Shown here one piece after another: positions 17,140-40,628 of a stretch of 64,000 bases of DNA (positions are counted from its first letter, which is position 1; the number at the start of each line of letters is the position of its first letter). The stretch is from assembly GCA_010015805.1 (NCBI GenBank), contig ML978122.1, positions 1,584,453 through 1,648,452 on the forward strand. Reading direction: 5' to 3'. Under the pieces are notes generated by a model. It saw nothing but the letters and a program-made list of their open reading frames with translations. It was not told where the DNA came from and searched no databases. Origin of the DNA: Rhizodiscina lignyota (taxonomy: Eukaryota). Both the position numbers and the translations under genes were made by a program.

Positions 17140-18534
<1,395 letters not shown>

Positions 18535-18990: not shown

Positions 18991-19479
18991 TCACAGGAGA
19001 CCGCTAAGGGGTGCCAACAGTCTAGCAGCTAGGCTTGGCCTGCTATATGTCCGCTCTAGCCTGAGGGATTTCAGCTTCCAACTGTTGTTGGTGAATTGCC
19101 ACGTCTCGTAGTAATAGCCCCCTCCTCTGACTTCAAGAGGAATGATTCCAAGGACAGAAGGATAGATAATTTGATCTTCCATGCACCAAATGGCCTCAAC
19201 GTCCCCGTTTGGTATTTCTTCTAGCTCACCACAACCGACGTGATGCAATGTCTGGGCGCTTCGAAATAGACTTTGAAGGTCGTGTACGAAATCCGCGGGG
19301 GAGATGTAGTTGAAGTTAAATGATCCGCTGCTCTGGATTGAACCATCTGGGTTATGAAAGGAGAGTGTGGCATCCGGTAATGCAATAGCTTCCAAGGCGC
19401 TCCATTGTTTAGTATCGATGTATCGGCAATATTTGGCTTTCATGGCTCGAATACCATCAGCGACTTCGTGTGAGACCAT
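18991..19479 (-). CDS. SnoaL-like / NTF2-fold protein (BaiE/scytalone dehydratase-like)
   Basis: Motifs IRAMKAKYCRYIDTKQW, TLHHVG, AIWCMED, GGGYYYETW, WKLKSLRLER. ATG at 19479. Confidence 0.85.
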   Translation of the reverse strand: MVSHEVADGIRAMKAKYCRYIDTKQWSALEAIALPDATLSFHNPDGSIQSSGSFNFNYISPADFVHDLQSLFRSAQTLHHVGCGELEEIPNGDVEAIWCMEDQIIYPSVLGIIPLEVRGGGYYYETWQFTNNSWKLKSLRLERTYSRPSLAARLLAPLSGLL

Positions 19480-19699
19480 TGTTGGGTGCTCTAAAGGCCG
19501 GGGGAATTGATGCAATGGGAATTTGAATTGGAAATTGCAACAACGCCGATTTATCAGGCGCTGTCTCAAGGGTGTCAATGAGTCAATTAAATACCGATTA
19601 TTTATGGGCAAAAGGCATGCCGACGGATGAATTTATTGATCCGCCGGCGTCGCCATGCGCGAAGACTCCGCTGCGATGGATGGGCACAGTGGAGGAAAT

Positions 19700-19709
19700 G
19701 GGGTCTCCG
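19700..19709 (-). promoter_or_regulatory. Putative cluster-TF site CGGAGACCCC upstream of the SnoaL gene
   Basis: Instance of the CGG-N2-3-CCCC motif recurring in cluster promoters. Confidence 0.5.
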
Positions 19710-20106
19710 GTCATGTTGCGGGCCGCGCCAGAGCGCGCTAAACGTGCGAAGTGATATTGTTGTGTCTAACAGAGCCTCATACTTTCTTAGCAAGCAAACT
19801 CAGATAACGAGACCTGCGGAGTAGGCTGTCGTGTATACAGAGCAAAATCCTTCAGCGCTCTATTCGAATCACCTGGCATCTCGGAGGAACCAGGATGTTC
19901 TCGTAATGAAGTTCATCGAAGCACTGAAAAACCGGAGAGCAGATGCGTCCCATTTTCTGAACAGCGATACCAAAGCGGCTTCGCTGGTGCTCATCTTTCA
20001 GCGCCAGAGAAGGGCGTTGAATCTCGTCTACTGGCACAACATGATCCTTACCCTTTTCTAGATCTCTTCTGAGTATATTATTGTTATTATCTAATTTCAA
20101 GATCGT

Positions 20107-22914
20107 CTAATGTAGGATTTGATAGAGACGGAATGCCACACTTGCCCTAAGTCCTGAGAGTAACTGCTGCCCTCGTGTTAGGGAAGATATCGCTTTGTGG
20201 CTGCCCTGGCTCTGTGAAGCATCCTTTGACCATAGGACAAGAGTAGAGAAAAAAATGGCATACGGTATGTAGGGATGCTCTGCCGTGGCTGTTTGGCATG
20301 CGCGTTTGATGCTTGGCCCTTGGTCTGAGTCCAGGTATGACTCGGGACTGCCACTGTGGCTTGCAGAATCAAAAATGGACGATTCACGCCCGTACATCCA
20401 CTCGACGAGAGTTATAAGACAGCAGGCATGCCAAGAAGAAATCATCCCATTACTGTTCGCTGCCCACGCTAGCACCTCACGCTGCTCTTCTTTAAGAGTG
20501 CTCCTCTGATTACTGGTCAGATCATTCTGTCTCGAGCTGTACGAGAAGTGTCGATGGAGCAGCTCGAGATCCGCATGGATAACCAGATTTATGCAATGGT
20601 AGATAATCAGATTTTCAGGAGCCGCTCGACCAGAGCCAAGTTCCATTTGGAGCCATTTTTCGCAGGCCAGAGTCACGTAATCACGCTTTGACAGAGGATC
20701 CCCCGGCGACGGGCCGGCTCTTGTGATGGAAGATGCCGAGTCACGCACGACAAGCCAAACGGAAGGGCCGAGCGCCGCTAAACAGCTAAGCCCACGCGGT
20801 CTCGAGTCTGAGCCCGACATGATTTGTGCAGGCGTAAGCATCCATGTCAGAGTCTCAGTCAGACGAGTTGCATGATCCTTCTGAGGATCCTCACTTCCCG
20901 ACCTGCGGCAGAGCATATCGATATATTTTGATGATAGCGCCGGTGGTCGTCTTGCAAGAAGCACGCGATACAGATCCAAGATGATCAGTGCCTCAAGTAC
21001 GCTGGTGTCAGAGTAAATATCCAACCGTGTTTGACAAGCAGGAAGTGCAGAACCAACCTAATGTCGACTTTGGTGTAAGCAGTCTCCTTTTTCGAGAGAG
21101 CATAATGCTGCGCCGCCTCTAGCAAATGGCCGTGGTATGCCTCCGCAAACTCGTGAGTCCTCCTGTCGCCGCTGCAGTAGCCGTACAGTTCTAGCAGGAT
21201 GAACTACCGATTGTCAGACAAAAAAATGTCCCTTTTTGCCGGAATAGAGTAGCGTGAGGAGTCATACTGTCTTCACAACCACCAGCCACTCCGATGGATC
21301 ATTCGAAAGTTCGTCGACAGATGTGCTGCAATTGAACTAGTGGAGAAAGTCAAAAAGTCAAGCACGAAACTTAGGCGTACGGAGGATTGAACAACTACCT
21401 TCCTCAAAACCAGCCTCCTCGAATCATTATACATGGCCATGGCCATCTTGAGGCTTCCTTCGACAGAACAAAAGAGCCCTCCAACGGCCGCTAGTGCTAG
21501 AACGTAATGCGCGTCAGGATGTCGGCCGAGACATAGATCCTCAAATATGGGAAAGGACGGAGGAATATGCCTCCAAAACAGATTCAGAAAAATTTTCAGA
21601 ACTTGTGCGTCGTAGATGGCTAGATTTGGTGGATCGGAATAGTACAGCTTGCCAGACGTTTCGTCCGCCTCGGATGGACTGGATGTGCGCGAATGATGAT
21701 TAAAGTACCGACGGATCATAGACGAAAGTAGCGGAAAGTCGGGCGGTAGGTCATGGCAGGTATTTACGAGCTCTTGCGGCGGCTGAGGCATTGTCCCTAG
21801 CAGGCCCAAGAATGGCCCTTCTATAAGCTCAAAGGGGTCAGAACGATCCATGAAAGCCCCTGAAATCTAGACATATATCAGCACCGCTACCGGGTCAGGA
21901 GAAACGAGGTTAAGGAATTCTCATCGTACAGAAGTTTGTGAGACAGCAGGACAGTATCCATCTGCGTCGAAGCCAGTGCCGAACCACATGGCCATGGCGT
22001 CTTGGGCGAACAGACCGGAGTCACCGAGGACTCCTCCGACAGAGGGTCTTTCGATGCTCTGGCAAGGCTCACACGGCTGTGTCCTTGGAAGAGCCAGATA
22101 GGCAGGTTGGGTTCCAGCAGGCAGAGCTAGGCTTCGATTCTCGGCCACCCATAGACCACTCTGAGTGCACGGCTCGGTGCTCGTAGACATCTGCTCCACT
22201 TGGAAAACAGAGTTTGAATCTGAGGACGGGGATGGGTCGACAGTGTGTTCTTGAGACCCGCAAAACGCACTTTCGGCGGTCGCGGTGACCGGCCACAGAG
22301 GTGTAGCTTGATGTGCATCTCTTGTCGACTCGGAGAAAAAGCACTGCAGGCCACTCTCTTGACAAGATTGACACGGCTCTCTTCCACTGCAGCGAATCTT
22401 GCGCCTCCGGCAGTGGTCACACGCGACGCGAATCCTCTTTCGACTGGTGCCGCCGCCGTACGCATCTAGGTCGCCTTGTCCCCAGGCATCCTCAGCATGG
22501 CACGTCTCTAGATGCAGCTTCCGCACATCTGCACGGCGAAAGGACCGGTCGCAACACGGACACCGGAACGGCTTTTCGTTAGTATCTATGAGACAGATGT
22601 CAGTGGTGTGCTCGAGCATTGGGTCGGTTCAAATACATACGGGTGCGTCGGTGTCGTAGCAAGTGCTCCGAACGTGCGAAGCGTGCTTGGCATATATCAC
22701 ACTGAAGAGCAGCCAAAGGTCAGCCCAGGTCAGTCATTTTGGCCCCAGACGGTGCAGAGAGGTGAAGGCCAAGGCACATCGCAGATTGGCAGATTGGCGA
22801 AGATGGAGCTGACATTGGGCCCAGCAATTCAGCATTCGAGTCGACAGGAAGACATACTGTTTTGTCCTTCCGCGGCGCAGAGTGCCCTGTCTTTGTCGCC
22901 GTCGCAGACTGCAT
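20107..22914 (-). CDS. Hybrid transcription factor: two C2H2 fingers, Zn(II)2Cys6 domain and fungal TF regulatory domain
   Basis: Spliced reading gives CDICQARFARSEHLLRHRRTH, then TNEKPFRCPCCDRSFRRADVRKLHLETCH, then ACDHCRRRKIRCSGREPCQSCQESGLQC. About six GT-AG introns keep the frame to the stop at 20107. The start at 22914 is inferred from intron 22702-22857. Confidence 0.88.
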
Positions 22915-23255
22915 CCTCTGCCGCGTCCACTGCAGCAGCCCGTCAACTTCTAGGACGAGGAACCCAAAAGTCGTGGTTCGAACACCACAAGAGAAAGGCA
23001 AACAGAGGATGCGGGCGGCATGCGGGGAAGTCCGGGGAAAAGTGGGTTGGTTGGTTTGGGGTTGATTTGGGGGGTGGCGCCGGGTGGTTCGTTTGTCCAA
23101 CAAGTCAGACGTCGCCCTCTCAAAGAGCACCGTTATCCGCGAGACTCCCACACCAACACCTGACGAGCTTTGAGCGTGTGGTCTCACATGCACCAGATAC
23201 CAATCTGGTTCGATGGGGCATTGGAGGCTCCCGGCGCTAAGGATGGGCGTGGGAT

Positions 23256-23285
23256 GGGGTACCGGCACTAGTGACGGGGGTTCCG
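23256..23285 (-). promoter_or_regulatory. Two putative sites (CGGTACCCC, CGGAACCCC) upstream of the hybrid TF
   Basis: GGGGTACCG at 23256-23264 and GGGGTTCCG at 23277-23285. Confidence 0.5.
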
Positions 23286-23378
23286 ACATGACTTGCATTT
23301 GCAGTTACTGTATGTCCATCGACACGCCTTAACAACACCCTTGGTTGAAGAGTCGGCACAATCGCCAGTTGTCTTCCT

Positions 23379-23972
23379 CTAGGCGCTGAGGTGTTTCTGA
23401 CTTGCCGGAATATCGTTGTTTTTGCCGAGGTCCTCCCGCAATGTCACGCCGTTGACGACAACCGGCTGGCAGTCTTGCAACACAAAGATCATCCTGGCCC
23501 ATTCGCTGTCTGATGTGTTCCGCCATGCATGCGATGTACCACGCTGAACACACACATCTCCAGCCTTCATGATCCTCTTCTCCCCGGATTCGAGGATGGC
23601 CTCCACACTGCCGTACACAACAATACCAAAATCAAGACTGCGTGTGCGGTGCATCATGCTCTCCGGCCCTGGGGCAAAGTCGACCGCTCTGCACACGCTC
23701 CCACCAGGGTTCACTAGGCCGATGTCGCCGCTGCTCATGATTGCCTGATGCTTGTGAATATCCTCATCGTTATTCAAGGATGGCGGACTCTCGCAGGTGG
23801 TATAAAGAACGGCAAAACTCATCGTGTTGCCGTGGAAAGCTTTCCAGTGCGCTGGTCTGGATGATACAAAATATTCCTTGCCGGAAGCATCGTGCCCCGT
23901 GATATTGACGTTGACTTCGGGAAGCCCTTGGGACAGTTGATTCGTATTTTCAATCCCGGCTTGCGGTGCCAT
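23379..23972 (-). CDS. Cupin-domain protein (Cupin_2, fungal metabolic-cluster type)
   Basis: Motifs ITGHDASGK, DFAPG...MHRTRSLDFGIV (motif 1) and GDVCVQRGTSHAWRN (motif 2). Intronless. Confidence 0.9.
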   Translation of the reverse strand: MAPQAGIENTNQLSQGLPEVNVNITGHDASGKEYFVSSRPAHWKAFHGNTMSFAVLYTTCESPPSLNNDEDIHKHQAIMSSGDIGLVNPGGSVCRAVDFAPGPESMMHRTRSLDFGIVVYGSVEAILESGEKRIMKAGDVCVQRGTSHAWRNTSDSEWARMIFVLQDCQPVVVNGVTLREDLGKNNDIPASQKHLSA

Positions 23973-24287
23973 CGTTAATGTTGCGCGAGGTAGCTTTGCA
24001 CCGTCTGGATTCTAGATCACAGTTAAACACAAATGACTTTTTTGTTATGAGCAAGGAGCAGAAAACGATGACCCTGGGTGACTTGTCGTCACGGTTATCA
24101 GTCTACTTATGGTGATACGTGATGGAAGATTCAAACCCTCGAATCTCAGGATGGGATCTGGGGCCATCCGGCTTCCCCCCAATCCATCCGTCCACCACCC
24201 CTGGGTTGCTTTACTTACTTTCCCCACGAAGTCACTCATTCTATTATCCGAAGTAGTCCGTCGAATGCCCAGTGGCGTCTTGCCCTT

Positions 24288-24323
24288 CGGTACCCCACGT
24301 TCGAACTTGACTTGCGGTGCCCC
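24288..24323 (+). promoter_or_regulatory. Two putative sites (CGGTACCCC, CGGTGCCCC) in the cupin/monooxygenase divergent promoter
   Basis: At 24288-24296 and 24315-24323. A further CGGCTTCCCC lies at 24169-24178. Confidence 0.5.
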
Positions 24324-24646
24324 ACGGGGTTGTAGTGAACAGATTGATCGAACGACGGCCGAAGCTTCCGAACGGGTTGCCGTGGGACATAGGGGCTGGG
24401 ACTGAGTTTCGCATCACTGGAGGAGCTGACTGGCCTCACAACGGCTGGCTCAGACAGGAGATGGAGGTGAAACCGAAGCGCACCATGCAAGATTATAAGT
24501 CCATCTGTCTGCTGTCCTTGTAATCGGTTTAGGCAGCTGGGCCTGTGTCTTTTTTCTGCCATTTCTTCTTCTTTTTATTACATTTACTTCAAACTGCTGG
24601 AACTTTGAAACACTTATCCCCTGATTTAAGAGAAGGAACTGTGAAG

Positions 24647-27093
24647 ATGTCAAACACCGATCTAACGGGAATCTTGCCAGGGCTTGTTACCTGTAGAGTC
24701 TCGATCGTTGGCGGTGGGATCGGGGGTCTTACGGCTGCCATAGCCCTGCGCCGAGCAGGACATGAAGTACATGTGAGCAAGTCCGATTCCTTCCTGGCAT
24801 CAGCTGGTATATGGACGCGTGTTAACCCCGTTGACTCACAGGTTTACGAGCAGTCAAGCTTCGCAAGTGAAACCGGTGCGGCAATTCATCTTACTCCAAA
24901 CGCAAACAGTGTCCTTCACCAGTTAGGGGTTGATCATGAAGGCAATGGTGGGGATCGACTTGGCATGGTAAGTAGGTTGCTGGTTACTCGGGTCTGCTCC
25001 AAGTGATGTGGCTCATATTGCGCCGCAGGTGCGCTTTTATAACTCTGCTGGAGACCTCCTGAGAACCCTGGACGTGACAGCTCAGGCTCATCGCTGGCAA
25101 ATGGTAAGAAGGAGGCTCTGGAATCTTCGGAAAGTCTTCAAGTCTCTGATTTTTCTCAGAACTGGCTCCAAACATATCGAATTGGCCTGCATCGTCACCT
25201 AAAGGAAACTGCCCTGTCACTGGACGGTACCGGGGCTCCAGTCCAACTCCACACATCAAGTCGGATAATGGCCGTGAATCCACACAAGGCCATAATCACC
25301 TTGGAGGGCGGGGAGACTATTAAAGCAGACGTCGTCGTTGGAGCTGACGGCGTCCGATCCCGGGCTCGGCTTGGAATATCCGAAGAAAGAAAGTTCGTAG
25401 CGGAGAAAGCAATCCAGAATGCCTTTCGGTTCATGATTCCGATCCAAAGAATCAAGGACAATCCACAGACAACCAACTTTCTGGATACCCTGAACTCTAT
25501 GGACATGTACTACGCCGACGACCGCAAAGTTGTCCAGTACCTCTGTGAAGGCGGAACCTCAGTCAATTTTGTCTGTTGCCATCCCGCTCACCTCACCGGT
25601 GAGTATCAGGAGGGCTACAACCATAAGACGTCAATAGGGGCCTTAATCGAGGTATACAAGTCCTTTAAACCGGCTCTGCTGGATGTGATGGCGCTGGTAG
25701 ACGAAGCCGACCTCAAAATCCATCCACTTCTGGACATAGACACGCTTCCAACCTACACGAATGACAGGCTAGTCGTGTTGGGAGACGCAGCACACCCTTT
25801 CACGCCTCATCTGGCCCAAGGTGCAGCCATGGCAATAGAGGATGGCGCCTCACTTGGTGTCATGTTGTCTGGACTGGATACCAAGGATGACATCCCGGAA
25901 CGGCTGCAACTGTACAACAAGGCTCGCCATGGAAGAGCATCACTAATTCAGGACATGTCCCGCATGACGGGCCATGAACCAACTCGATCCAACAGCGGCG
26001 CTCAGATTCAGAAATGGAAAGGTGAGATACATCGGTCCCCTTTCAACTCAGCGAGCTACGAACTTACCTGAACGCTCTCATAGTTCACGAATTTCTTTTT
26101 TATGGGTTTAGCCATGACGAGATCCACTTTTCATCGCAGATACTCCGAGAATATAAATGGTCCAAAGCGCCGAGACTCTATTGGAGACAGCCGATTTGTT
26201 TCGGGCCGCTGGCTGGGCCTCGGCAGGCAGGCTTAGTGTTTCCTCGTCCTGATGGCCTTTCCACCGCGGTTTCTATAACTGCTTCCATCCGCTTTCGCAC
26301 GAGCGCGACTCTACTACGCAATCTGTTCCCTTCTCCCGCGTACCGGTTTTCCGAAACGGACACGGTTGCCGAAGCTAGTTTCACGTTTCAAACGATTGAC
26401 AACTTGAGCTGGCTAGGACACAAAGGATACGAGCTGGTCATGTTCCAGATCCACGGCGTACAGGTCGAGAGCAGAGATGGCCATTTTACCAAGGGGTCCT
26501 ACATTGCTGTGGTCCTGGAGAACCTTGCAGATCCGATTGTTTCTGGTCGTGAGGAACTTGGCTGGCCGAAGCTGTATTCCGAGATCAACTTCAACCATAA
26601 CGCCGGCGTGGGAGGCGATCTGGCCGTCGAGCTATCTTGGAGAGGTGTGAAATGGGCGTCGTTCTCTTGGAAGCAGCTGCGGGAAACCGAGAACTCGCAT
26701 CGGCCGACGCCTGCCCTTGTTCACAGTGACGTGCAGTCGAATGGTACCCATTTCAACAACAACAGCCACTTGAACGGAGCGAGCCGCGAGCAACCCGGGC
26801 AAGAACACATGTTCGTGCATAAGTACATTCCCGCAACTACGGACTCCCCATGCAAGGCGCTTGCTGATGCAGACTACACTGTTCTGATTCCTCCAACCAA
26901 ATCCAAGGCGGAGTGGCAGCAGGTAGCGTCCGATGCCGGCTTTGAGTTCCTGCCGCAGACAGACATGCAGCTCCCCACCTTGTCCCATATAGCTAACCGC
27001 TTGTCGGAGCTGCCCATGTTCGGGCTCGTCGAGGCTACAGTGAAGAAGGTAAATGGGCAGGACGACTTCTCAGCAGCCAAGAGACTCGAGTAA
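24647..27093 (+). CDS. FAD-dependent monooxygenase (salicylate-hydroxylase-like) fused to a C-terminal acetoacetate-decarboxylase-like domain
   Basis: IVGGGIGGL, VGADGVRS, LGDAAHPFTPHLAQGAAMAIEDG. Intron 26022-26083 joins in frame to WRQPICFGPLAGPRQ...ENLADPIVSGREELGWPK. Four introns in total. Confidence 0.88.
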
Positions 27094-27763: not shown

Positions 27764-29572
27764 CTATAGGCTTTTCGGAATGATGGGTAACTGGAGATAG
27801 TTCTCAACTCCCTCGCCGAAGTGAATGGTGTTCAATCCACCAAAACGTTCGGTACTTCTGTCTGTAGTGTTTTCATGTCTGAATAGACCGCTACCCCCTG
27901 TGTCCCCTGACGCCACCTCCAGAACTAGGGTGTCGCCCTCGCTCATGATGACGTTCGTTGGCCAGATTTCCACGTCTACGGCGTAGATTATACCGGGTTC
28001 GAGGAGTTCTTCGTCGGTGGAGAAGTATTGGCGATAAGGCAGGTAGCTTCGATGCTGAGAGTGTATCTCATCCGTCTTCCTAAGGCTGCATCGGAGCCAG
28101 CCCTTGGTCACCGGCACAGGATCACCAACCGCCCCAGTGTATAGGATTTCCTTGCCCTTGGCATCAAGGTGTCTCAACGTCACAAAGATATCCATGTCTG
28201 AGGGCACCTGGTCTGGCTGCTCGTCGCAAGGGGAGACAGACACATTGAGATGTGCCGCAATGTGGCCAGTAATCTCGGTCTCCGTCTTGAAAGATGCCAA
28301 AAATGTAACAAACTCGGGCTTTGTGACAGACCCGAGTGCTTTGTACGTGACGGCGGACTTCGGAGATTCTCTCGCTGGCCGATCTGTCGTGAGTCTAGAG
28401 TCCTGCGTGAGGTAAAAGCGCACATACTCTGTGCGAGCAATCGGCCATTCTCGTTCCTCGCGGCGCTGGAAGAGTTTCTCTGCCTCGGCATTATTGTGGC
28501 CAACGTCGCCTTTGCGCAGGAGAACGCTGACAGACGCGATCTTGCCGGGCACTGACCAGCCAACCTCGTCCTTGCCCTTGAGCCATGCATCGAGGAATCC
28601 TCGCTGAAGTTCGACCTCATCTTTGTAATAAAACGGCAGATCATGCCTTCCCGCCATGAAACGCAAAAATTTGAACTCGGAGCTGGCAAACATGTAGCCT
28701 ACTACGTTTCCGCGCAGATGTAGGCCCGAATTTCCTAAGTTGGCAACTGAAAGCAGGGGAACTTTGATGTCTTCGAGCCTGAAGTCCCGAGAAGCGTAAT
28801 ACTCTTGGTCACGGAAACGATATTTCTCGTTGTCAATGTTCTGATCCCGTCGATTGTCCTTGAGTTCCTCCTCTGAGAGATCACCTTCTATAGTGTCATC
28901 GCCTCGGCCAGCGGCAGCGCGGCCGGGTCGGCCGTACTGGTTCGTGATGACCTGTCGATTCCACCAGAAACGTATGAATGCGTCCGATAGAATCCCGCCG
29001 TGGCGGCACCGATCGCGATAGTAGTCGGACATGCCTTCCCATGGGATGATGCATGCAAGGCCGCGCGGTTGCCGGGCTGCGACGCGCCACTGAGTGCCGG
29101 CGAAATAGCTCACGCCCAGCAGACCGACTTTGCCGTTCGACCAGGGCCGCTGCGCAGCCCATTCGATTGCATGGCAGAAAGCGTTGGCAGTGTCGTTGGA
29201 CATGGAGTCGAGATAACCAGGAGACTGACCGAAGCCCCTTTCGTCGCAGCGCACAACTGCATATCCATGGCGGGTCCAGAACACTGGATCAGGCGTTTCC
29301 CAAGCAGAGTACTTGGATTTCTGCTCTGGCTCCACTTCAGAGAACGACTGCGGGTGGAACTTGTTGTACTCGATATCCTTTCCGTACGGTCCATAGGTCA
29401 TAATTACTGGCAGTGCAGTTCCTACGGCAGTCGAGGAGCTCAGGGGTCGATAGATATTGCACCGGATTGGATAATCGGAATTAGGAATAGGAATGCTGAC
29501 ATTTTTGTCAAAAAGAACATTATTCTCTTCATCGTAGAAGGTTTCTTGAATGTCCTTGATTTTGTTCGGCAT
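27764..29572 (-). CDS. CocE/NonD family alpha/beta hydrolase (peptidase S15-like, with C-terminal PepX_C-like domain)
   Basis: Motifs PVIMTYGPYGKD, DERGFGQSPG, WSNGKVGLLGVSYFAG (nucleophile G-x-S-Y-x-G), GRHDLPFY, VTKGWLRCSLRK, VEIWPT. Intronless, 602 aa. Confidence 0.92.
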   Translation of the reverse strand: MPNKIKDIQETFYDEENNVLFDKNVSIPIPNSDYPIRCNIYRPLSSSTAVGTALPVIMTYGPYGKDIEYNKFHPQSFSEVEPEQKSKYSAWETPDPVFWTRHGYAVVRCDERGFGQSPGYLDSMSNDTANAFCHAIEWAAQRPWSNGKVGLLGVSYFAGTQWRVAARQPRGLACIIPWEGMSDYYRDRCRHGGILSDAFIRFWWNRQVITNQYGRPGRAAAGRGDDTIEGDLSEEELKDNRRDQNIDNEKYRFRDQEYYASRDFRLEDIKVPLLSVANLGNSGLHLRGNVVGYMFASSEFKFLRFMAGRHDLPFYYKDEVELQRGFLDAWLKGKDEVGWSVPGKIASVSVLLRKGDVGHNNAEAEKLFQRREEREWPIARTEYVRFYLTQDSRLTTDRPARESPKSAVTYKALGSVTKPEFVTFLASFKTETEITGHIAAHLNVSVSPCDEQPDQVPSDMDIFVTLRHLDAKGKEILYTGAVGDPVPVTKGWLRCSLRKTDEIHSQHRSYLPYRQYFSTDEELLEPGIIYAVDVEIWPTNVIMSEGDTLVLEVASGDTGGSGLFRHENTTDRSTERFGGLNTIHFGEGVENYLQLPIIPKSL

Positions 29573-29779
29573 ACCTAGGTATTGAATGATTGTTGAGCGA
29601 TAAAGACAAAATAATTCTCGTTAGATCGCAGCCGGCTCAGACGTGAAGTGAGAACCACTTTTTGAACCTACATACATACTTGCACCTGCGTTTAGGTGCA
29701 GAGGTTATTCTTCAGCCGACAAACAGATCCATCCTACGAAGTATGGGGAGCTCTCCAGCGCATCCGGAAAGGGGCCAAG

Positions 29780-29912: not shown

Positions 29913-31747
29913 ATGACCAACACAGGGCAGCTCCATAATCCTACCGAGTCGGTCCTCTTGTCACAAGGTCAACCGACCAAATGGGAGACGCGTGAGGCAA
30001 TCATAACGCCGGATGATGATTTTCTCGTCAATTTCAAGGAGCGACTGATTCACAGTGAGGACGGGAAAATTAGCGGTGACCAGCACCTGCAGGGGTTTCA
30101 GGAGCTGCGTTTGCCACTTAGCTCTACGCAGCATCAAGTAAGCTCTGTTCGCGCCTCGTGCTTGGAGCTGTAGTAGCCTGATAGAGACTGACTGGCATCG
30201 AGTAGGATGAATCAAGGCATTTCACATACCCATTATCCGTGCTGGGTAGTAGCCCTGTTGGCTCAAACTTCAACTTGGAAGACGAGTTGGCAAGTCGACG
30301 CCCATCGTTTAATTCAACGCTCGAGTGCCACATCTACCTTGATGGGCTTCAGATTCGAAGTCTTTGGGATCCCGATGCCATTCTACCACCGTATCTTGAT
30401 GCTGCCCTGGCAAGTCTCACATGCCTAATGGGGGAGGACATTGATCATCCCAGAAGTCATTACCTATTCATGACCGGAGTCAGGTTGCTCCTTGTGATGC
30501 TCGAAGTCGACAATAGAGAAGCCCGGAAGGTCGAAGGGGCACTGGCCGTTAGTATGCCCTATGGGTGTCTCTGTGATTATTCGAATACTCACAGTCCACG
30601 TCTAGGCACTCTTATTGTCTTCTTGGGGTCTCTTAACCTCCTGTCGATCGGATTGGAGAATTGCCACGAACACGCTAACATTCTTCATGGCGGTGAGCTT
30701 GGACAGTGAATGTTAGACCCATCCATCATATTCTGACTATCTATCGATACTAGATGATGAGACGGCTGACACCTGCAACTTCCGTCTCTCCTGGCGTGTT
30801 TCCCAGGACTGCAAGGTACAGGATCCCATCGTGGCTTGCAGAACAATCCTTGTTCATTGAAGAAGGCTAGCTGAATTGATATACATAGCCCATATAGTGC
30901 CCTTGTCCGCTTCGGCTTCCTTGTTGACACTTTGGCGGCAATTCATCATAACCAAGCTCCCGGATTTTCGACTAGCGAATTAAGGATATCCATGCTCTCC
31001 TCGGACCATTCTTTCAAAGTAGTGTACTACAGTTTGCTCAGCGGAAGTTCAGTCATACCGGAAGATGTTCGGAACGATGAGGATGGGCTACTTCTGCTCA
31101 CAGCCATATTGTCAGATACACTCTTTCTACAGCGAAATATTTGCTCGATCACTCTTTCTGGCAACAGCAATAGACGGAGTCCTCACCTAGCATTTCAAGA
31201 AGCCAATCCATTTGCCGCTCTGACGCCCAGAGGCGAGTACCATCGCCAGAAACTGATCATGTCAAATGGCCTGGATCGGTGGCTTTCCCATTTTCGGCAC
31301 ACTACATCGACAAACGTCCTAGCATTTCACCACTTCTGCACGCTTTGCTTGCTATGTCCAGACTTGGGGCTCCTCGCCCAGCGCGCAAGCTATCCTCCAC
31401 AGGGAGGACCAGAGCAAGAGCGCCTAAGAGAAGTTGGGTTACCCAGGGATCATGGCCACAAGGTGATGATTACCGAGGAAGCTTTGCACGCGGCGTGGAG
31501 AGTAGTGGATCAGGTGAACGTGAAAACGCAGCGAGACAAATACTCTATCTGGCTTCCGATCGTGATTTTCTTCTCGGCTCTGGTGGTTTGGTGTAAAGCG
31601 AAAGAGACTGAGGATGAAACAACAGGCCACCGGTACACATCTAGGAAGACTCTAGCAGCTTTTGCCAGGGAGCTGGATGAACTGCCTTGGCCATGTTGCA
31701 GGGTCATGTCAGCCACTCTAGCTGATCTCATGCGGGAGGAGAAGTAG
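29913..31747 (+). CDS. Fungal transcription-factor-like protein apparently lacking a DNA-binding domain
   Basis: Five exons link through GT-AG introns (donors gtaagc, gttagt, gtgagc, gtacag). The C-terminus HAAWRVVD...WLPIVIFFSALVVW resembles the end of the 20107-22914 TF (SWHACCLI...YIPYAIFFSTLVLW). No Cys/His finger found. Start uncertain. Confidence 0.65.
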
Positions 31748-32377
31748 TTTTAATGAGAGATGTGACCTACTCTCAGTAAAATGAGGACACTGTATTTCAG
31801 ACTCGGTAGAGTAGCTCATGCATCTGAGATGATCTTGTTTGTTACCGATCCTATTCCATCAATTTCGAGCCGCACCACGTCACCTATCTCTAGTCTGAAT
31901 CTTGCAAACTCAACTCTAGCCCCCAAAAGAAAGGTCTGTTATGGACCTAATTGAGCCTCGTAAGCGCACGTCCCCGATCGGCGTCGACGGTGGTTGTAGA
32001 AGGCCGAGGCTGCGCAATCGGTATCAACCCCACGAACCGGTTCCTGGAGAAATCCGACGATAATCTTGGGGTCAGCCGTGCTGATTGTGCCGCTTACCAC
32101 ATCTGGAGCCTGGTTAAGTCTGCCCGTTCATTTCGATATACCCGGAAACCTCGATGAGACAAGCTGTGCTTTGAATCGGGCTTTCTTTATGATTTCGGTA
32201 TCATCGGTCTTTGGGACGGGCCGTTTTATAAACCCAGCACAATGGCCTTGAGCTCACCGTCTATTTCTGCCATCTTATATGCTTTGAACACATCCGCCAA
32301 GAGAAACAAGAGAAAGGAACAACGCCGAGTTGGCTGCGCGAACTTCGATCAAATACTTTGGCTTTTTTTCATTAACC

Positions 32378-33448
32378 ATGGCCGGCCCTAATAAGATCAA
32401 TTTGCAACGGCTATCGTATGTCATCTATGAGCACCCCGACATGGAGAGCTTTGAACGCTTCGCTGAAGACTTCGGCTTCGAGTCCGTGGGTAAGGCGGGA
32501 GGTAGAGATGTCTTCTTCCGTGGCTACGGGCCAGACCCATTCGTCTACGTTGCGCGGCTATCACCGAATGGAAGCCCTAAGAGGTTTTATGGTGCTGGTT
32601 TTGTTGCGCGCACAGCTCAAGACTTTGATAGAGCATGCCAGATGCAGGGAGCAGAGGTGAAAGATGTCTCTCACCGCCCAGGGTCTGGCAAGATGGTCAG
32701 TGTGCCCGACCCTAATGGCTTCGTTATCGAGATTGTCTACGGCCAGGAAGAAAAGATTGTGCCGAGACAAGGGATTTCCGTTGTCGAGGGTGGACGTCCA
32801 ATTGTGAATGGGGCTGTCCAGAAATCTCGCAAAGGTAGGTGCATCAGTCCATATTTCCTACACGCCACTCGGCTGTTAAACCTCCCCAACCAAGACATCT
32901 CGGAGAACTCACTTCATTTTAAAGGTGTTTTCAACCGTATGAGCAGCAACCCTGCAAAGGTTCATAAGATAGGACACTTCGGATACATGACGGACAACTA
33001 CAAGGACACTTGCGCTTGGTATGGCGGACATTTCAACCTCAAAGCCTCAGATATCGTGCATCGCCCGGGCGATGAGTCTGCCGAACTGATGTGTTTCTTC
33101 CACTTGGACCTTGGGGCTGAGTACTCGGACCATCACTGTCTCCTCGTGGCGGGCCACCACGGCAATGGGAGTGGAACACGCATCCATCATTCGTCGTTCG
33201 AGGTTGAAGATCTGGACACCCAGATGATGGGCCACCAGTGGCTGGCGGAGAAGGGATATAAACCCATGTGGGGTGTTGGCAGGCACGTCATGGGCTCGCA
33301 GATCTTTGACTACTGGTACGACACCACAGGGTTTATCATTGAGCACTACGCGGACGGCGACGTGGTCAACCAAGACACGCCAACTTGTCGGTCTGCTGGT
33401 ACTCCAGCAGCAATCTGGGGCCCACCCTTGCCTGTCAAATGGGATTAA
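32378..33448 (+). CDS. VOC-family extradiol ring-cleavage dioxygenase (trihydroxytoluene oxygenase/DntD-like)
   Basis: Two VOC domains with HKIGHFG, DHHC, IHHSSFEV, WGVGRHVMGSQIFDYWYD, FIIEHYADGD. In-frame 90-nt intron at 32835-32924. Confidence 0.9.
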   Translation: MAGPNKINLQRLSYVIYEHPDMESFERFAEDFGFESVGKAGGRDVFFRGYGPDPFVYVARLSPNGSPKRFYGAGFVARTAQDFDRACQMQGAEVKDVSHRPGSGKMVSVPDPNGFVIEIVYGQEEKIVPRQGISVVEGGRPIVNGAVQKSRKGRCISPYFLHATRLLNLPNQDISENSLHFKGVFNRMSSNPAKVHKIGHFGYMTDNYKDTCAWYGGHFNLKASDIVHRPGDESAELMCFFHLDLGAEYSDHHCLLVAGHHGNGSGTRIHHSSFEVEDLDTQMMGHQWLAEKGYKPMWGVGRHVMGSQIFDYWYDTTGFIIEHYADGDVVNQDTPTCRSAGTPAAIWGPPLPVKWD

Positions 33449-33731
33449 TTGTATCTTGAATAATATATAGAAAAGGGTGTAAAAGATGGGCCTGCCCTGG
33501 ATGCTTCCAAATCCGGTGCGTTTCACGTGACTCCAAGAGTCTACCTAGAAATAAGTGCTCCTGATGCAAATGCAGGTGGTCCCTTAGCCGGTTAGAGGTT
33601 ACTCCGGGTCGGAGCCGAGCTGAACGTAGGGAAAAATAGAAAAAGCGATGTCGAAGCTGATGAGGCGGAACTAACGTCATACCCCACAACGGGGTATGTA
33701 ATGGGGTCCCACGGTCCTTAGGGCTCAACAT

Positions 33732-33741
33732 GGGGTTACCG
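33732..33741 (-). promoter_or_regulatory. Putative site CGGTAACCCC upstream of the GST-like gene
   Basis: GGGGTTACCG on the + strand. Confidence 0.45.
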
Positions 33742-34034
33742 AGCCTGCGTCAACGGCGTTCCCACAGTCCCATCTGCCCTTGGACCGGAAACATTAGAAG
33801 CAATAGCAGGTAGCTTCTATAATACAGTATCTCACGTCATGAATTTACGTTCTAGGATCAACATGGAGTGCAGCGTGGGCTTGCTTACGTCCATCTCTCC
33901 GGTTCGAATATTGAACATCCTTAGTCTTATTGTTATCCTCCGCGGCTCTATACCATAGTTGATTTCTGCCTCAGCCTTCATCACGCAGACCTGTTGCAAT
34001 ATCATATCCAACTTTATCACTGACCATTGTCAAG

Positions 34035-34958
34035 ATGGAGGCAGCATCCTACACTCTCCATCATCACAGATATTCCATCTGCTCTATTATGGTGAGATAC
34101 TGCATCGCTATTCGAGGGGAGCCCAAAAGCGGCATGTCCGAAGCGACATTCTTCGAAAAGGAGATAGACATCTTCGCAAACGAGCAGCTGTCCGAAGACT
34201 TCCTCTGCCATGTGAACCCAAAAGGCCAGGTATTGCTTAGTTTCCCCGGTCGCTCACCACTCTTCTGTTTCAATGACCACCTGACCATGCAATCAGGTCC
34301 CAGCGATTACCACTTCGAGTCTTGATCAGCCACTCTACGACAGTGTAACAATCACACATTATCTTGCCAGCTTATACCCAAGTCTGATGCCGCCATCTCA
34401 TCGTCAGCTGATTTCCAGCCTGATTGATCTCTTGCATAGCATCAATTTCTTTTCCTTGAGCTTCGCAGGGTCGAAGAACGGCGACCCTGCCGGACATATC
34501 AAGCAAGAAATTCAACGCCGACTGAGGAAAGATGTATCACCTAGGTACCGGGAAGCCTTAGAATATAAACTAGCAGTGTAGGTTCTGCATGGAGTCTCGC
34601 ACCTCAAGACTCTTAATCCCAGAACAATCATATCATGGCTGACTCTCTCCCAATTCACAGTCATGAAGCCGAGAAAGTCTACGGCCTGGGATCCGATTTT
34701 GTTACGAAAATGATCAGTCGCACCGAGAGTCTGCTCTTCATATGTCAACAGAATCTGCCAGAAGGGGCTAGGTGGATGCTTGGTTTACCACAACCCAGCG
34801 CTCTTGACGCACACCTGGTGACTTTTATAGCGAGACTGGAGGATGCGGGCAGAACGAATCTCGTGCCACCACGACTCTCAACATATTGTGCAGATGCGCG
34901 CGAGACTGAAGAGTGGAGGCGCATCATGCAAGGAAGAAAGACTGCCCCTGGCAGGTAG
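34035..34958 (+). CDS. Glutathione S-transferase-like protein
   Basis: YSICSIMVRY, EQLSEDFLCHVNPKGQ|VPAI, DSVTITHYL (GST N-terminal) and PSALDAHLVTFIARL (GST C-terminal). Two introns. Confidence 0.8.
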
Positions 34959-36030: not shown

Positions 36031-36054
36031 GGGGTTCCGCCGCGGGGGACTCCG
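36031..36054 (-). promoter_or_regulatory. Two putative sites (CGGAACCCC, CGGAGTCCCC) upstream of the P450
   Basis: GGGGTTCCG at 36031-36039 and GGGGACTCCG at 36045-36054. Confidence 0.5.
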
Positions 36055-36404
36055 ACATGAAGAGGAGACACTACACGAACACGACGCTATTTCAGGGAAA
36101 AAAGTGTTTTTTTATCGGCTACTCCTTCACAGGGATTGTGTGGAGAGAATGTCGTTACGGGTCATAGCAGGTATGCATGTCTACGAGACAATAGTCACGG
36201 CACATATATAGAGGCAGGAAGCCTGTCCACCTCGAAAATACGATGTTTCTATTCCTTCTTAACTTTTATTTTCCGCTCTCTTATTTAGCTGCTCTATTTT
36301 CACGCTATTATCATCAATATAAACCTTAAGTTGCGCGAATTCCTTCCCCTTGTACGAAGTCCTTGGTCCTCTACATTGTTGCCTCCCTGGCCCGTCAGGA
36401 CATC

Positions 36405-38125
36405 ATGTTTCTCGCATTATCCTTGGCAACAATTTTCAAAACCTCTATTGCTATTGTTAGCATCTCCATGTTGACATGAATTGGGCTAAATGGTCTTTAA
36501 CACATAAATACAGGCAATCGGATATTTCCTGTGCCAATGTGGCTACAATGTCTTGTTCCATCCTCTACGACACTACCCTGGCCCCAAGCTATGGGCAATG
36601 ACCCGCATCCCTTACACGTGCATGTTCCTGTCGGGAAAGGCGCACATTCGGATTCTCGAGTTCCACAAGCAGTACGGTCCTGTGGTTCGAATTGCGCCGG
36701 AATTCTTGTCGATGAGTCACGAGGATGCCATGAAAGAGACCCGTGATCACCGCAAGGACGGCAAGGCTCTGCTGATGAAAGAACCTATTCATCATGCTGA
36801 TCTGCAGAAAACTCTTTTTGGCGCCACTCGCGACGACCATACGCGATATCGGCGGGCAGTGGCTCACGGTTTCTCTGCCAAGTCCATGCAGGATCAGCAG
36901 CCACTCATACAGACCTATATCAGTATGCTGATGAGACGTCTTCGTGAGCAGTGCGATGGAGGTTCAACGGCGTTGGACATGGTTAAATGGTTCAATTACG
37001 CAACCTTCGATGTCATTGGTGATCTATCGTTCGGTGAATCATTTGGATGTCTCGAAAACTCAGATTATCATCCGTGGGTCGCACTCATCTTCGATGTGGT
37101 CAAAGACTTGACGTGGAGGCTGAGTATGAAGCGTTATACGCTTCTTGCACCTCTCTTAAAGTACCTTATCCCGAAGCAATTGTCACGCAGGTTTGAGGAG
37201 CATAGCGAGCTGTCTCGAGCTAAATTGCAGAAGAGACTTGCTACTCTAACTGACCGGCCCGATTTCATTGGCTCGATGATTAAAGCTCGCTCGAAATCTG
37301 AAAATGTAAGCAAAACCGACGAAAACAAGTAATGGCACACTAAGGGGATTCGAAACAGAGTATTTCGCTCAGTGAAATCGAGACAGTCGCAGCCCAGCTC
37401 ATCATCGCCGGTTCCGAAACGACCGCCACGACTCTGTCCGCGACAACTTACTATCTAACTAGACATCCTCACGTGCTGGCAACGCTGTGTGCTGAAGTCC
37501 GCTCATCCTTCAGCAGCGAGAAGGAAATAAACCTGTTTAATGTGCAGAACCTACGTTACATGATGGCTGTCATTAACGAGTCGATGAGAATGTATCCCGC
37601 GACACCTGGCGGGCAGCCTCGTCAGGTTGATGAGAGCGGGGCTATGATTCTAGGGCAATATGTTCCTGGCGGTGTAAGTAAACCGGAATTCCACTACTTC
37701 GAATTTGATTCATTGACAAGCTTTGTGATGCAGACCAAGATTGAAATCTGGCAATGGGCGCTGTACCATAATCCACGCTGTTTCACAAGGCCCGACGATT
37801 TCATACCAGAGCGATGGCTAGATGACCCACATTTTGCAGCAGATAAGAAGGATGCTTTTCAGCCTTTTTCAGTTGGCCCGCGCAGCTGTATTGGCAGAAA
37901 GTGAGTTATAACAAGTCCCTAGACTTGGTGTTGTTGCTAACGATTATTTTGCTCATCAGCTTGGCATATGCTGAAATGCATCTGATTATAGCACGACTGG
38001 TGTGGAATTTTGATATTCGCTTGGCACAGGGATCAGACGATTGGGATCAAAGAAGCAATGTCCTTCTACTTTGGGAAAAGCCAGGTTTGTATATTTCTTT
38101 GGAGCCGAGGGAAATATCCTCATAG
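36405..38125 (+). CDS. Cytochrome P450 (CYP65/Tri11-like)
   Basis: FHPLRHYPGP, FDVIGDLSFGESFGCL, AGSETT, ESMR (ExxR), FIPERW, FSVGPRSCIG (haem Cys). Four introns. Confidence 0.93.
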
Positions 38126-38280
38126 TGCCATTCGGGGCTTGATTTGCAATGAATAATGATGGACTGTAAAGTAACCGATGCAAGAATGTTACCGGAGACA
38201 AATCCTCGAAGATCCTCTTTCGGCAAAACACAGGGAACGGGAGCCAATGCAGCGCCACAGCGTACAGCGGAGACATTAAT

Positions 38281-40628
38281 ATGCCCTCAACTGTGAGACG
38301 CCTTGGAGTGCACTGTGCGATCTGGTTTGGCCACTCGTCAATAGTCGAGGTAAGCACTAATCAAAAGTTAATGAAGACCGATTTCTTCTAGAGACACGAT
38401 AGTCCGAGCAATAATGGAGAGTATATAATTTGCTAGCTTGCCCTCGATCGCGATAACGATGCTCAGCTCCTTGAGGTTAGGATTCGGACATTATGGTGCA
38501 TTGTCTCTCCGCCGTGAGTGATATTACTGACATTTTCTTTAGCCCCTCAACACAAGCGATCTGTGGGGACGATCATTTGGGGTTGTTGGAGAAGAGCGTG
38601 CCTTTGACTACATCGTCTGCGGGGGCGGTAATGCCGGGCTCACAATAGCATCACGACTCTCCGAGAAACCTACCATCAGCGTTGCAGTTGTCGAGGCTGG
38701 TGGATTCTATGAGCTCGACAACGGCTACTACTCCGAGATCCCTGGATGTTGCAGGAAATATTGTACTCCTGTGCTCGTTGGTGGCAATATCATTGATCCT
38801 CAACCGCTCGTTGATTGGGGTGTGGTCATCGAGCCACAGAAGGTAAACTTGATATATCACAATTATACCCTGTCTGATATATTCAGCACCTCAACAATCA
38901 ATCATTTCGGTACCCTGCCGGGAAAACATTGGGAGGAGGGTCGGTATTCCAGTTACGTCCCTGAATTAGAGTCGGAAATCTGACTGCGAGTAGCTCAGCT
39001 CGGAACTTCACCTCGTACCTTAGAGTAAGTTATCTGGTTAGCTAAGGATAATGCGAAACTATGCTAACCTGCTCCATGGGGGATAGCCCACGAAAGGGGC
39101 CTTTGACAAGTGGGCGGCCGAGGTTCGAGACGACTCTTATCAATTCAGGGAGTTCACCCGCTATTTCAGGAAAACTATTAGCTTCACCTCTCCTCCAGAA
39201 TCTCGACTAGCCAAGGATCACTACGACGAAGACGCATTTTGGAAGGCGGGCGGGCCAGTCAAGGTCTCTTTTCCACAATATAGACAGCCTCTGACCGACA
39301 AAATTCCCGATGCTCTTCAAAAGGCTGGCCTATCTGCACTGAGAGGCCTGAGTAGCGGCAAACTGATTGGCTTTGGTCAATCTCCATTTACTGTTGATCC
39401 TTCCACCGGCACGCGAAGCTCTTCTGAAAGCTCTTTCCTGCAGACTGCTCTTGGCCGAGAGAATCTGACAGTCTATATCAAAACGACCGCAGAGAAGATT
39501 GTGTTCGATGGGAAGAAGGCGACCGGGGTCAATGTCGAGACCGGCGGTCTGAGATACACCTTGAAGGCTAAAAATGAAGTCATTGTCTCCTCGGGTGCAT
39601 TCCGTTCCCCTCATCTACTATTGCTCTCTGGAGTTGGACCAAAGAACGATCTGGAGAAACTCGGAATCGAGGTTTTGGCTGACCGGCCCGGCGTTGGCCA
39701 GAATTACCACGTAAGTGCTAAGAACGGATTACCAGACCATTGTGTGATACTCATGTTTACCAGGATCATATGGCCGCGGAAACAATCTATCCAGTTGACT
39801 GTTACACACTCTCTGCCCTCCAAGACTCAGCATCCATGGAAGAGGCTACGAAGCAATTCATCAATACTCGAGATGGCCCACTGACAGGCATTGGTGTTGA
39901 CATTCTTGGTAAGTGATATCCTGTCAATGGATCCCAGCTGGAGAGAAATTCAGGACACTGAGACATTTGCAGCATTCGAGAAGATCCCTCCGCATCATCG
40001 TACCAAGCTCTTCCCGGAAGCAGAAAATGACCTGGCTACTACTTATCCTTCAGATTGGCCTGAAATTGAAATCATACCGCTTTCTTTTACCAACCTGCCA
40101 ACTCCAGAGCCGGAGAAGCAGCACTATATGTCGCTGATGTTCGTCAACCAAGCACCCCTGTCACGTGGAACGATCACTCTCAAGTCAGCCTCGCCCTCGG
40201 ATCCACCTGTTGTCGATCCGAATTACTTCTCCCATCCCACGGACAAGGAACTAATGATCGCAGCTTTCAGACGCGTTCGTGAGATCGCTTCTCATATGGA
40301 CTTCATCAATGGAGTGGAATTCTCACCTGGTGCCTCCGTTCAAACCGACAACGATGAGCATATTATGGAATTCCTAAAAGCAGCCGGAGTTCCCTTTTTC
40401 CATGCTGCAGGGACGTGCAAGATGGGCAAGCGTGATGACCCAATGGCTGTAGTTGACTCGACTGCAAGGCTCATCGGAGTGGAAGGTGTCCGTGTGGTCG
40501 ACGCAAGCGCCTTCCCGTTCTGCTTACCAGGACATCCTCAGAGTGTAGTGTATGCTCTGGCAGAGAAGATCGCGGAGGATATCCTGTCCATGTTGAAGAA
40601 CAGAGAGAGATTGTTACACATAAGATGA
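38281..40628 (+). CDS. GMC oxidoreductase (PatE/versicolorin B synthase-like)
   Basis: FDYIVCGGGNAGL, VAVVEAGG, SSGAFRSPHLLLLSGVGP, FHAAGTCKMG, RVVDAS, GHPQSVVYALAEKIA. Multiple introns. The first two small exons and the start at 38281 are inferred. Confidence 0.88.

Follow-up and report, generated by a model that had tools for sequence, protein, structure and literature searches.

A candidate ascomycete catabolic cluster for hydroxylated aromatic acids around a flavin monooxygenase-ADC fusion gene of Rhizodiscina lignyota

Gene content of the locus

The DNA considered here is a stretch of 64,000 nucleotides from the wood-dwelling Dothideomycete Rhizodiscina lignyota (GenBank assembly GCA_010015805.1, contig ML978122.1, positions 1,584,453 to 1,648,452), referred to below as the window. 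A block of ten genes in this window encodes, among others, a protein in which a group A flavin monooxygenase is fused to an ADC domain. The sequence comparisons described below make it probable that a catabolic cluster conserved among ascomycetes lies within this block and that its substrate is a hydroxylated aromatic acid or an ester of such an acid. The core of this cluster would comprise the fusion, a hydrolase of the S15/CocE type, a small cupin, an extradiol dioxygenase (of the VOC type here, of the LigB type in most relatives) and a pair of regulators.

The source DNA has a G+C content of about 50%, and its genes contain short introns. Annotation of the block with Pfam on stop-to-stop open reading frames (ORFs) located the ten genes at the positions where a first-pass annotation of this DNA had placed them (Table 1). 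They lie between a LYS12-like gene and a DUF1769 gene, and, as had also been claimed, no domain of a polyketide synthase (PKS), nonribosomal peptide synthetase (NRPS), terpene synthase or transporter was detected between these two in any of the 25 ORFs scanned in the block. These 25 were drawn from 98 ORFs with a length of 80 aa or more, the remainder being mostly overlapping or antisense frames. Outside the block, 84 further ORFs of the window were scanned, and none of them encoded a backbone synthase.

Table 1. Genes of the block, its two flanking genes and other genes of the window mentioned in the text (positions in the window)
Gene	Position	Strand	Evidence and remarks
SnoaL_4 (NTF2-like) protein, single exon	18991..19479 (ORF 18991-19632)	-	SnoaL_4 1.1e-07, 32.3 bits versus cut-off 24
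C2H2-like + Zn2Cys6 regulator, at least 3 exons	20107..22628	-	Zn_clus 9.9e-12 at 21921-22628
Small monocupin, core partner	23379..23972 (ORF 23379-24011)	-	Cupin_2 1.1e-07, 31.9 bits versus 27.2
Group A flavin monooxygenase-ADC fusion, anchor gene	24647..27093	+	FAD_binding_3 and FAD-binding motifs 24533-26071; ADC (PF06314) 26026-27093
S15 / CocE-NonD serine hydrolase, single exon, 602 aa, core partner	27764..29572 (ORF 27764-29620)	-	Peptidase_S15 6e-39, PepX_C 8e-37
"TF-like" protein, at least 2 exons, ascomycete-specific	30206..31747	+	No Pfam domain; ESM-Atlas resemblance
Two-domain VOC-type (type I) extradiol dioxygenase (predicted)	32375..33448 (ORF 32288-33448)	+	Glyoxalase 1e-09; one annotated intron in the public model
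GST-like protein, 3 exons	~34035..34958	+	ESM-Atlas resemblance of the last exon
Cytochrome P450, first exon(s) probably further upstream	36508..37904	+	p450 7e-18 and 8.5e-38
GMC oxidoreductase, 3 ORF segments	38543..40628	+	GMC_oxred_N 3e-23, GMC_oxred_C 6e-39 (39087-40628)
LYS12-like gene, flank of the block	17140-18531		Iso_dh
DUF1769 gene, flank of the block	41416-42048		Duc1
DUF6604 gene	54187-55757	-	
SMP-30/gluconolactonase-like gene	56646-57614	+	
Haem-containing (aldoxime-type) dehydratase	63410-64000	-	Cut by the window end

The monooxygenase-ADC fusion

The fusion of the two domains is real and widespread. A 62-nt GT..AG intron (26022-26083) connects the monooxygenase frame in phase to that of the ADC domain, and the annotated R. 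lignyota protein (P0004, 708 aa), which contains both domains, is exactly the translation of the window apart from the annotated introns. PF06314 was recognized with 43 bits in the exon and with 50.4 bits in P0004, compared with a gathering threshold of 29.8. When the ADC exon was searched among longer proteins, 48 of 50 long fungal relatives (595-1136 residues) contained both PF01494 and PF06314, and a metagenomic locus (L007) encoded both domains in one uninterrupted, intron-free ORF of 774 aa. A 24-residue in-frame stretch of the ADC exon (26695-26766) is spliced out in P0004; it falls in a variable loop that is modeled with a pLDDT below 50 (residues 204-236) and where Trichoderma has an insertion, so that an intron and a disordered loop are both conceivable.

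The flavin part belongs to FAD_binding_3 and has the GxGxxG, DG and GD motifs of group A flavin hydroxylases, with VGGGIGGL, GADGV.S and GDAAHPF conserved in the alignment of the fusions. All of its 53 relatives of solved structure are flavin monooxygenases or oxidases. The closest are decarboxylating aromatic-acid hydroxylases, with decarboxylative vanillate 1-hydroxylase (5e-33) first, together with 4-hydroxybenzoate 1-hydroxylase, 6-hydroxynicotinate 3-monooxygenase (6.6e-28) and salicylate hydroxylases.

The ADC part aligned end to end with whole stand-alone bacterial proteins of about 280 residues, and contains a lysine that was invariant in 19 of 19 fusions (K559), in 8 of 8 sequences of a second alignment and in 22 of 22 sequences when numbered on the exon (K162); its codon is at about 26569-26571. 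The surrounding motif, ENL.DPI.SGREELG..K, is common to the fusions and the bacterial proteins, and ...DPI.SGREELG.PK is also found in the structure 3cmb. Judging from the ...GRE..G.PKK motif, this lysine may be the equivalent of the catalytic lysine of true ADC. Further evidence for the fold was obtained with an AlphaFold2 model of the domain (pLDDT 77.7): all 24 Foldseek matches at E<=0.001 were entries of the ADC superfamily (TM-score 0.59-0.80, normalized to the target), comprising 3cmb, the aldolase-dehydratases Sbi00515 and Swit_4259, MppR and true decarboxylases (3bh2/3bgt). This search did not separate the decarboxylases from the aldolase-dehydratases. By sequence, the only ADC structure that could be detected was 3cmb (2e-08), to which no function is assigned. 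The domain is predicted to share the fold of these proteins but, unlike them, it is fused to a flavin monooxygenase. The related ADC-like family comprised 478 representative clusters at E<=0.001 among 1.84 billion, and stand-alone bacterial homologues are common (502 loci found).

Core partners and their recurrence in other fungi

Metagenomic contigs were scanned with the alignment of the fusions. This yielded 80 loci, of which 7 of bacterial type were set aside; co-location was counted in 41 of the 73 fungal-type loci, those with at least 4 kb of flanking sequence. The S15 hydrolase was present in 20/41 loci, with an identity (46-71%) higher than that of the fusion itself, and the cupin in 14/41. 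A LigB-type dioxygenase accompanied the fusion in 11 loci and a VOC enzyme in 1 (L032), while the window-type regulator and the TF-like gene were each found in 4. Genes absent from the block also recurred: an aldehyde dehydrogenase (19/41), an MFS transporter (14/41), a gene of the fumarylacetoacetase (FAH) family (5/41), BBE/FAD_binding_4 oxidases (4/41), as well as SDR and histidinol-dehydrogenase-like genes. The flanking genes of the block, used as controls, were never found (LYS12 0/41, Duc1 0/41). In the usual layout, aldehyde dehydrogenase, cupin and hydrolase lie on one strand facing the fusion, with LigB, regulator, MFS and FAH genes nearby, so that related clusters usually add an aldehyde dehydrogenase and an MFS transporter, and often an FAH-family hydrolase, to the genes seen in the window.

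The same associations were found in named genomes. The VOC enzyme, the hydrolase and the fusion are encoded by BBP40_003251, 003252 and 003253 in A. hancockii. In 10 Trichoderma assemblies, fusion, hydrolase and VOC enzyme fall within six consecutive accession numbers and keep the fusion-hydrolase-(1-3 genes)-VOC order of the window (the T. harzianum fusion is N5P37_011434), and 5 more assemblies have two of the three. Adjacent pairs were observed in E. xenobiotica (LTR67_003518/003519, hydrolase and fusion), in a Teratosphaeriaceae species (LTR53_001129/001130) and in F. endolithicus (LTR74_014644/014645), the latter two consisting of VOC enzyme and fusion. Thus, the expectation that homologues would be co-located in other fungi was borne out for the core genes in both the metagenomic loci and the named genomes, and conservation as a unit is confined to one part of the block, namely the fusion, the hydrolase, the cupin, the extradiol dioxygenase, the regulator and the TF-like gene.

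Among PDB entries, the hydrolase is closest to 3ib3 (8e-53), with cocaine esterase at about 1e-15, and a GVSY nucleophile motif was read in its translation. Its family numbers 6910 proteins at E<=1e-30 and retains about 60% identity across ascomycete classes. In public models, an S15 hydrolase is merged with Cupin_2 in A. oryzae (P0271, 795 aa) and with fumarylacetoacetase domains in V. dahliae (P0295, 845 aa); whether the proteins are genuinely fused or the models join two neighbouring genes, adjacency is shown. The cupin matches 8x0u (1.6e-35) and 3es1 (1.1e-32). Its motif 2, G..(5)..G..H...N, is intact; in motif 1, HxH is replaced by HRT and Glu by Asp, as is also the case in 8x0u and 3es1. 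It additionally showed a weak match to 5-nitrosalicylate 1,2-dioxygenase (0.0037).

The regulator, which may extend upstream towards ~23300, had been described as a hybrid. Its Zn2Cys6 part is supported by the Zn_clus match, and a C2H2-like finger could be read by eye directly before it, but this finger had no Pfam match. Homologues with 25-44% identity are present in the clusters of L001, L003, L012 and L032, and in all four a homologue of the TF-like gene stands beside them. The TF-like protein itself resembles clusters of ascomycete hypothetical proteins in the ESM-Atlas (0.96). The label given to it was not confirmed by Pfam, but 13 of its 30 ESM-Atlas matches belong to clusters in which 53% of the members carry Fungal_trans, which points weakly to a transcription factor.

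A profile of the VOC family (26 relatives) matched 3b59 (7.9e-15) and BphC (1han, 2e-08). The invariant residues H170, H241, E292, the HH pair 222/223 and Y282 (P0056 numbering) stand opposite the metal ligands (H, H and E) and the catalytic His and Tyr (the HH pair and Y) of BphC. The protein therefore has the residues of a type I extradiol enzyme and is predicted to be an Fe(II) ring-cleaving dioxygenase. Like the bacterial enzymes BphC, XylE and DntD (2,4,5-trihydroxytoluene oxygenase), it is a two-domain VOC protein, and among its relatives with some 40% identity several are called "trihydroxytoluene oxygenase" or "metapyrocatechase" in public records. Besides the window, VOC genes were found near the fusion gene in A. 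hancockii, the Teratosphaeriaceae species, F. endolithicus, the Trichoderma assemblies and L032. The ADC part was also placed in a quick tree of 69 rows. All 5 VOC-linked fusions included (window, A. hancockii, Teratosphaeriaceae, Friedmanniomyces and L032) fell in one clade of 13 rows (SH-aLRT 97), and the LigB-linked fusions were spread over the whole tree, some of them inside this clade. Most simply, LigB would be the older partner, replaced by VOC in one lineage.

That two unrelated folds with the same chemistry occupy the same conserved neighbourhood speaks for extradiol cleavage as a constant element of the pathway, and the presence of LigB in the place of VOC in related clusters is good indirect evidence for such a step. 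The proposal of a meta-cleavage pathway in the first-pass annotation was therefore supported as far as ring opening is concerned, by the residues aligned with BphC and by the LigB genes of the relatives. Families of the classical lower pathway of the xyl/dmp type (4-oxalocrotonate tautomerase and decarboxylase, 2-oxopent-4-enoate hydratase and HOA aldolase) were absent from those ORFs of the window that were scanned. FAH-family genes, which have the fold of the lower-pathway decarboxylase and hydratase, are those counted above in five relatives. The fungal routes known for aromatic compounds are for the most part intradiol, and a recent review agrees that extradiol dioxygenases are "less common" in fungi (PMC12388069).

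The closest relatives of the window genes are found in Trichoderma, with 79% identity for the hydrolase and 63-66% for the fusion, versus about 61% and about 40% in other Dothideomycetes. In a quick tree of 36 hydrolases, the window copy was sister to Trichoderma (support 100); the two were nested in a group of Hypocreales (97) along with the copy of A. hancockii that is linked to the cluster (100), and eleven other Dothideomycete copies were placed elsewhere. Approximately unbiased (AU) tests on the hydrolases rejected both a clade of Hypocreales only (p 0.010) and a single clade of Dothideomycetes (p 5e-57). The fusion tree also placed the window next to Trichoderma (100), and one Dothideomycete clade was again rejected (p 2e-08). 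These trees make it likely that the cluster was passed horizontally between Hypocreales and the lineage of Rhizodiscina, but they do not prove it, because the groups submitted to the AU tests were named after the trees had been seen and because sampling was limited to the listed matches. Old paralogy with losses is the alternative.

Elsewhere in the window, the genes recognized were an aspartyl protease, an MFS transporter, a DUF1989 gene, PIG-M and a GH95 fucosidase-like gene upstream, together with the three genes given at the end of Table 1.

Proposed pathway and competing explanations

What we observed is family membership, co-location and residue conservation; from these we infer all of the chemical steps that follow. 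The hydrolase would free the aromatic acid from an ester. Alternatively, it might act on a methyl ester arising when the ring is cleaved beside a methoxy substituent, which is the role of OmeA in the vanillate route of Aspergillus niger (PMC8336404). The flavin domain would then hydroxylate the ring, probably with loss of CO2, to give a catechol-, hydroquinone- or hydroxyquinol-type product, which the Fe(II) dioxygenase would open beside the hydroxyls. The ADC domain, acting through a lysine Schiff base, may decarboxylate a beta-keto-acid intermediate of the hydroxylation; the other option is that it splits a 2-oxo-enoate fission product, releasing pyruvate plus an aldehyde, and this would account for the aldehyde dehydrogenase so often present in the relatives. 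In the latter, aldehyde dehydrogenase and the FAH-family hydrolase would complete the degradation. Our best guess for the substrate is a lignin- or tannin-derived hydroxy- or methoxy-benzoate (vanillate, syringate, protocatechuate, gallate) or an ester of one of these. The order of steps proposed in the first-pass annotation and its suggestion of a phytoalexin remain guesses; the flavin domain is closest to decarboxylating aromatic-acid hydroxylases.

Surveys have defined fungal degradative clusters anchored on genes for salicylate-hydroxylase-like enzymes (SAH) or LigB-type aromatic ring-opening dioxygenases (ARD) (bioRxiv 10.1101/184242; PMC10735191), and the present cluster would fall under this definition. 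Like the degradative clusters of Gluck-Thaler and Slot, the present one combines a group A flavin monooxygenase, a ring-opening dioxygenase and a regulator, with transporter and FAH-type genes in its relatives; like them, it is patchy and transfer-prone in Pezizomycotina and has no backbone synthase. It differs in that the ADC fusion, the S15 hydrolase and the cupin are not mentioned in the main texts of the surveys (the cluster models being in the supplements) and in that VOC replaces LigB here. With the VhyA/MhdA/OmeA system of A. niger it shares a common logic, i.e. a decarboxylating salicylate-hydroxylase-like enzyme followed by ring cleavage and then by an ester hydrolase, and the best solved relative of the window flavin domain is a decarboxylative vanillate 1-hydroxylase. 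The enzymes themselves are different. MhdA is of the homogentisate-dioxygenase type, neither VOC nor LigB; OmeA is a carboxylesterase and not an S15 hydrolase; and VhyA, expressed at an expected mass of 48.1 kDa, is far smaller than the fusions of about 700 residues. Of the three genes, only mhdA and omeA lie next to each other (PMC8336404).

The bacterial meta-cleavage pathways differ as well: the similarity to BphC is remote, and the places of tautomerase, hydratase and aldolase are taken by an ADC-fold domain, a cupin and an S15 hydrolase. Two specific identifications were rejected. The VOC enzyme is not the methoxyhydroquinone dioxygenase MhdA, which is a homologue of homogentisate dioxygenase (PMC8336404), and the cluster is not the one for 1,2,3,5-tetrahydroxybenzene (gallate), which comprises DUF3500, an FAH-like gene and a short protein, with no mention of a cupin, ADC or CocE in the accessible text (PMC10832562). 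Searches for papers on the locus tags ATEG_06323, FVEG_06737, MYCFIDRAFT_178899, A1O9_03369, PFICI_03217 and FPSE_04866 found none, those on 8X0U, 8X0V, 3ES1 and 3B59 gave only unrelated matches, and those on the gene combination or on fungal fusions of the ADC superfamily gave nothing. We thus found no published characterization of the cluster or of the fusion.

Several observations weigh against the catabolic interpretation or against details of it. The subfamilies of the fusion, the hydrolase and the cupin contain no member of known activity, and the best structure matches of the cupin and the VOC enzyme have titles that name no function. For the GMC protein, the nearest solved relative is patulin synthase, which serves in biosynthesis. 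The block of the window lacks three genes of the related clusters, those for the aldehyde dehydrogenase, the MFS transporter and the FAH-family hydrolase. The match to 5-nitrosalicylate 1,2-dioxygenase makes the cupin itself a possible ring-cleaving enzyme, which would change the order of steps. Near-duplicate loci (L001/L003/L012/L002, L035/L037, L020/L021, L024/L025 and L067/L068) cause the counts to overstate the number of independent cases. Finally, an SDR gene, rather than genes of aromatic pathways, was present in the fetched flanks of the bacterial ADC-like gene (61/88 loci, versus 5/88 for a cupin and 2/88 for VOC), which indicates that the chemistry of the domain need not concern ring-fission products. 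Overall, the bacterial context gave little guidance on function. Many of these SDR-paired loci come from metagenome-assembled genomes of Caldilineaceae and show housekeeping synteny, and only two contigs, of proteobacterial type (L073 and L074), carry instead the series TRAP transporter-cupin-ADC-VOC-Amidohydro_2.

An extension of the catabolic reading is a single co-regulated pathway made up of the whole set of ten genes between SnoaL and GMC, in which P450 and GMC would activate the substrate and SnoaL, GST-like protein and cupin would process it. No unrelated gene interrupts the series of ten, a P450 is present near the fusion in L002, L003, L012 and L032, and a benzylic alcohol could enter the pathway by way of a GMC or BBE-type oxidase; BBE/FAD_binding_4 oxidases lie in four relatives. 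Moreover, in the tanX regulon of A. niger, genes for an esterase and an extradiol dioxygenase are induced jointly with those for a flavin monooxygenase and a SnoaL-like decarboxylase (PMC10512348). The ten-gene extent was nevertheless not supported by the related metagenomic loci: SnoaL and GMC were found in none of the 41, the GST-like gene in 2, and the P450s of the four loci just named were only 27-36% identical to that of the window. We therefore regard a pathway of this extent as unlikely. The membership of SnoaL, GST-like protein and GMC in the conserved cluster is unproven and that of the P450 uncertain; all four would be lineage-specific additions or mere neighbours.

The proteins concerned gave few other indications. 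The only solved relatives of the SnoaL_4 protein are BaiE bile-acid dehydratases (8.5e-05). The designation "GST-like" fits only weakly: the exons had no Pfam match to GST_N or GST_C, or to any other family, even at E 10, and exon 2 had no PDB match, but all named ESM-Atlas matches of the last exon are GST_C or Glutaredoxin2_C clusters (0.91-0.94), a weak resemblance, and a VP...DS..I..YL-type stretch could be read by eye. The two loci with GST-like homologues (L067 and L068, 39-45% identity) have them beside a monooxygenase that lacks the ADC domain. They also hold a P450 and a fragment of a regulator, and may represent a second, different type of cluster sharing the GST-like gene.

Could the core act on an N-heterocycle or on a specific xenobiotic or phytoanticipin, such as a pyridine-carboxylate or a benzoxazolinone-like compound, for degradation or detoxification, rather than on a lignin or tannin monomer? 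The relatives of the flavin domain include, besides the 6-hydroxynicotinate 3-monooxygenase mentioned above, the ring-opening 2-methyl-3-hydroxypyridine-5-carboxylate oxygenase (3e-20). The 2-benzoxazolinone-induced cluster FVEG_03394-03405 of Fusarium verticillioides, for which FAH-family, FAD-binding, cupin, aldehyde dehydrogenase and transporter genes are listed, resembles the relatives of the present cluster by gene description alone (PMC10512309). However, the top matches of the flavin domain act on hydroxybenzoates, and neither an amidase nor a deformylase was recurrent in the related loci, which makes a substrate of this kind quite unlikely.

The block could also be a biosynthetic or tailoring cluster for a secondary metabolite, or the remnant of one, with a backbone enzyme lost or located elsewhere. 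SnoaL, GST-like proteins, P450, GMC, cupins and flavin monooxygenases are common tailoring genes. The C-terminal part of the GMC protein is by far closest to patulin synthase (8bxl, 4e-44, versus 4.5e-23 for the next solved relative, choline oxidase), and the distribution of the cluster is patchy and transfer-like. A PKS in syntenic clusters, which the first-pass annotation had named in advance as the sign of a biosynthetic remnant, was not encountered in the flanks of the related loci: PKS, NRPS and terpene-synthase domains were absent from the long non-core flanking ORFs of the 73 fungal loci (150 of the 167 ORFs of at least 230 aa were scanned, the other 17 being exact duplicates or scanned earlier), as they were from the ORFs scanned in the window. 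In addition, the recurrent neighbours (aldehyde dehydrogenase, LigB, FAH-family hydrolase, MFS) are of a catabolic type, and the size and the conservation across classes of the hydrolase family argue in the same direction. A biosynthetic role is therefore very unlikely.

A mere chance assembly of neighbours without any functional cluster is extremely improbable, and is already contradicted for the core, because hydrolase, cupin and ring-cleaving enzyme (LigB or VOC, 12/41) recur beside the fusion while the flanking controls do not, and because gene order is kept in Trichoderma and A. hancockii, which belong to classes other than that of R. lignyota; chance may still account for SnoaL, the GST-like gene and GMC.

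We return to the reading of the core as a catabolic cluster for a hydroxylated aromatic acid. A more far-reaching version of it, which we put forward only tentatively, is that the fusion is a new bifunctional enzyme in a widespread, unrecognized extradiol pathway of ascomycetes. This enzyme would couple hydroxylation to Schiff-base chemistry (beta-keto-acid decarboxylation or aldol-type splitting); LigB and VOC would be interchangeable in the pathway, and the VOC version would have moved horizontally between Hypocreales (Trichoderma harzianum group) and the Dothideomycete Rhizodiscina. The cluster family, defined by three enzymes still to be characterized (the fusion, the highly conserved S15 hydrolase and the small cupin), offers a handle on a fungal extradiol route for lignin- or tannin-derived aromatics, and it is present in tractable Trichoderma strains; it is of relevance to carbon turnover in wood and soil and to lignin valorization. 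The exchange of LigB for VOC is a clean natural case of non-homologous replacement in a conserved cluster, and the ADC-fold domain would gain its first physiological context in eukaryotes.

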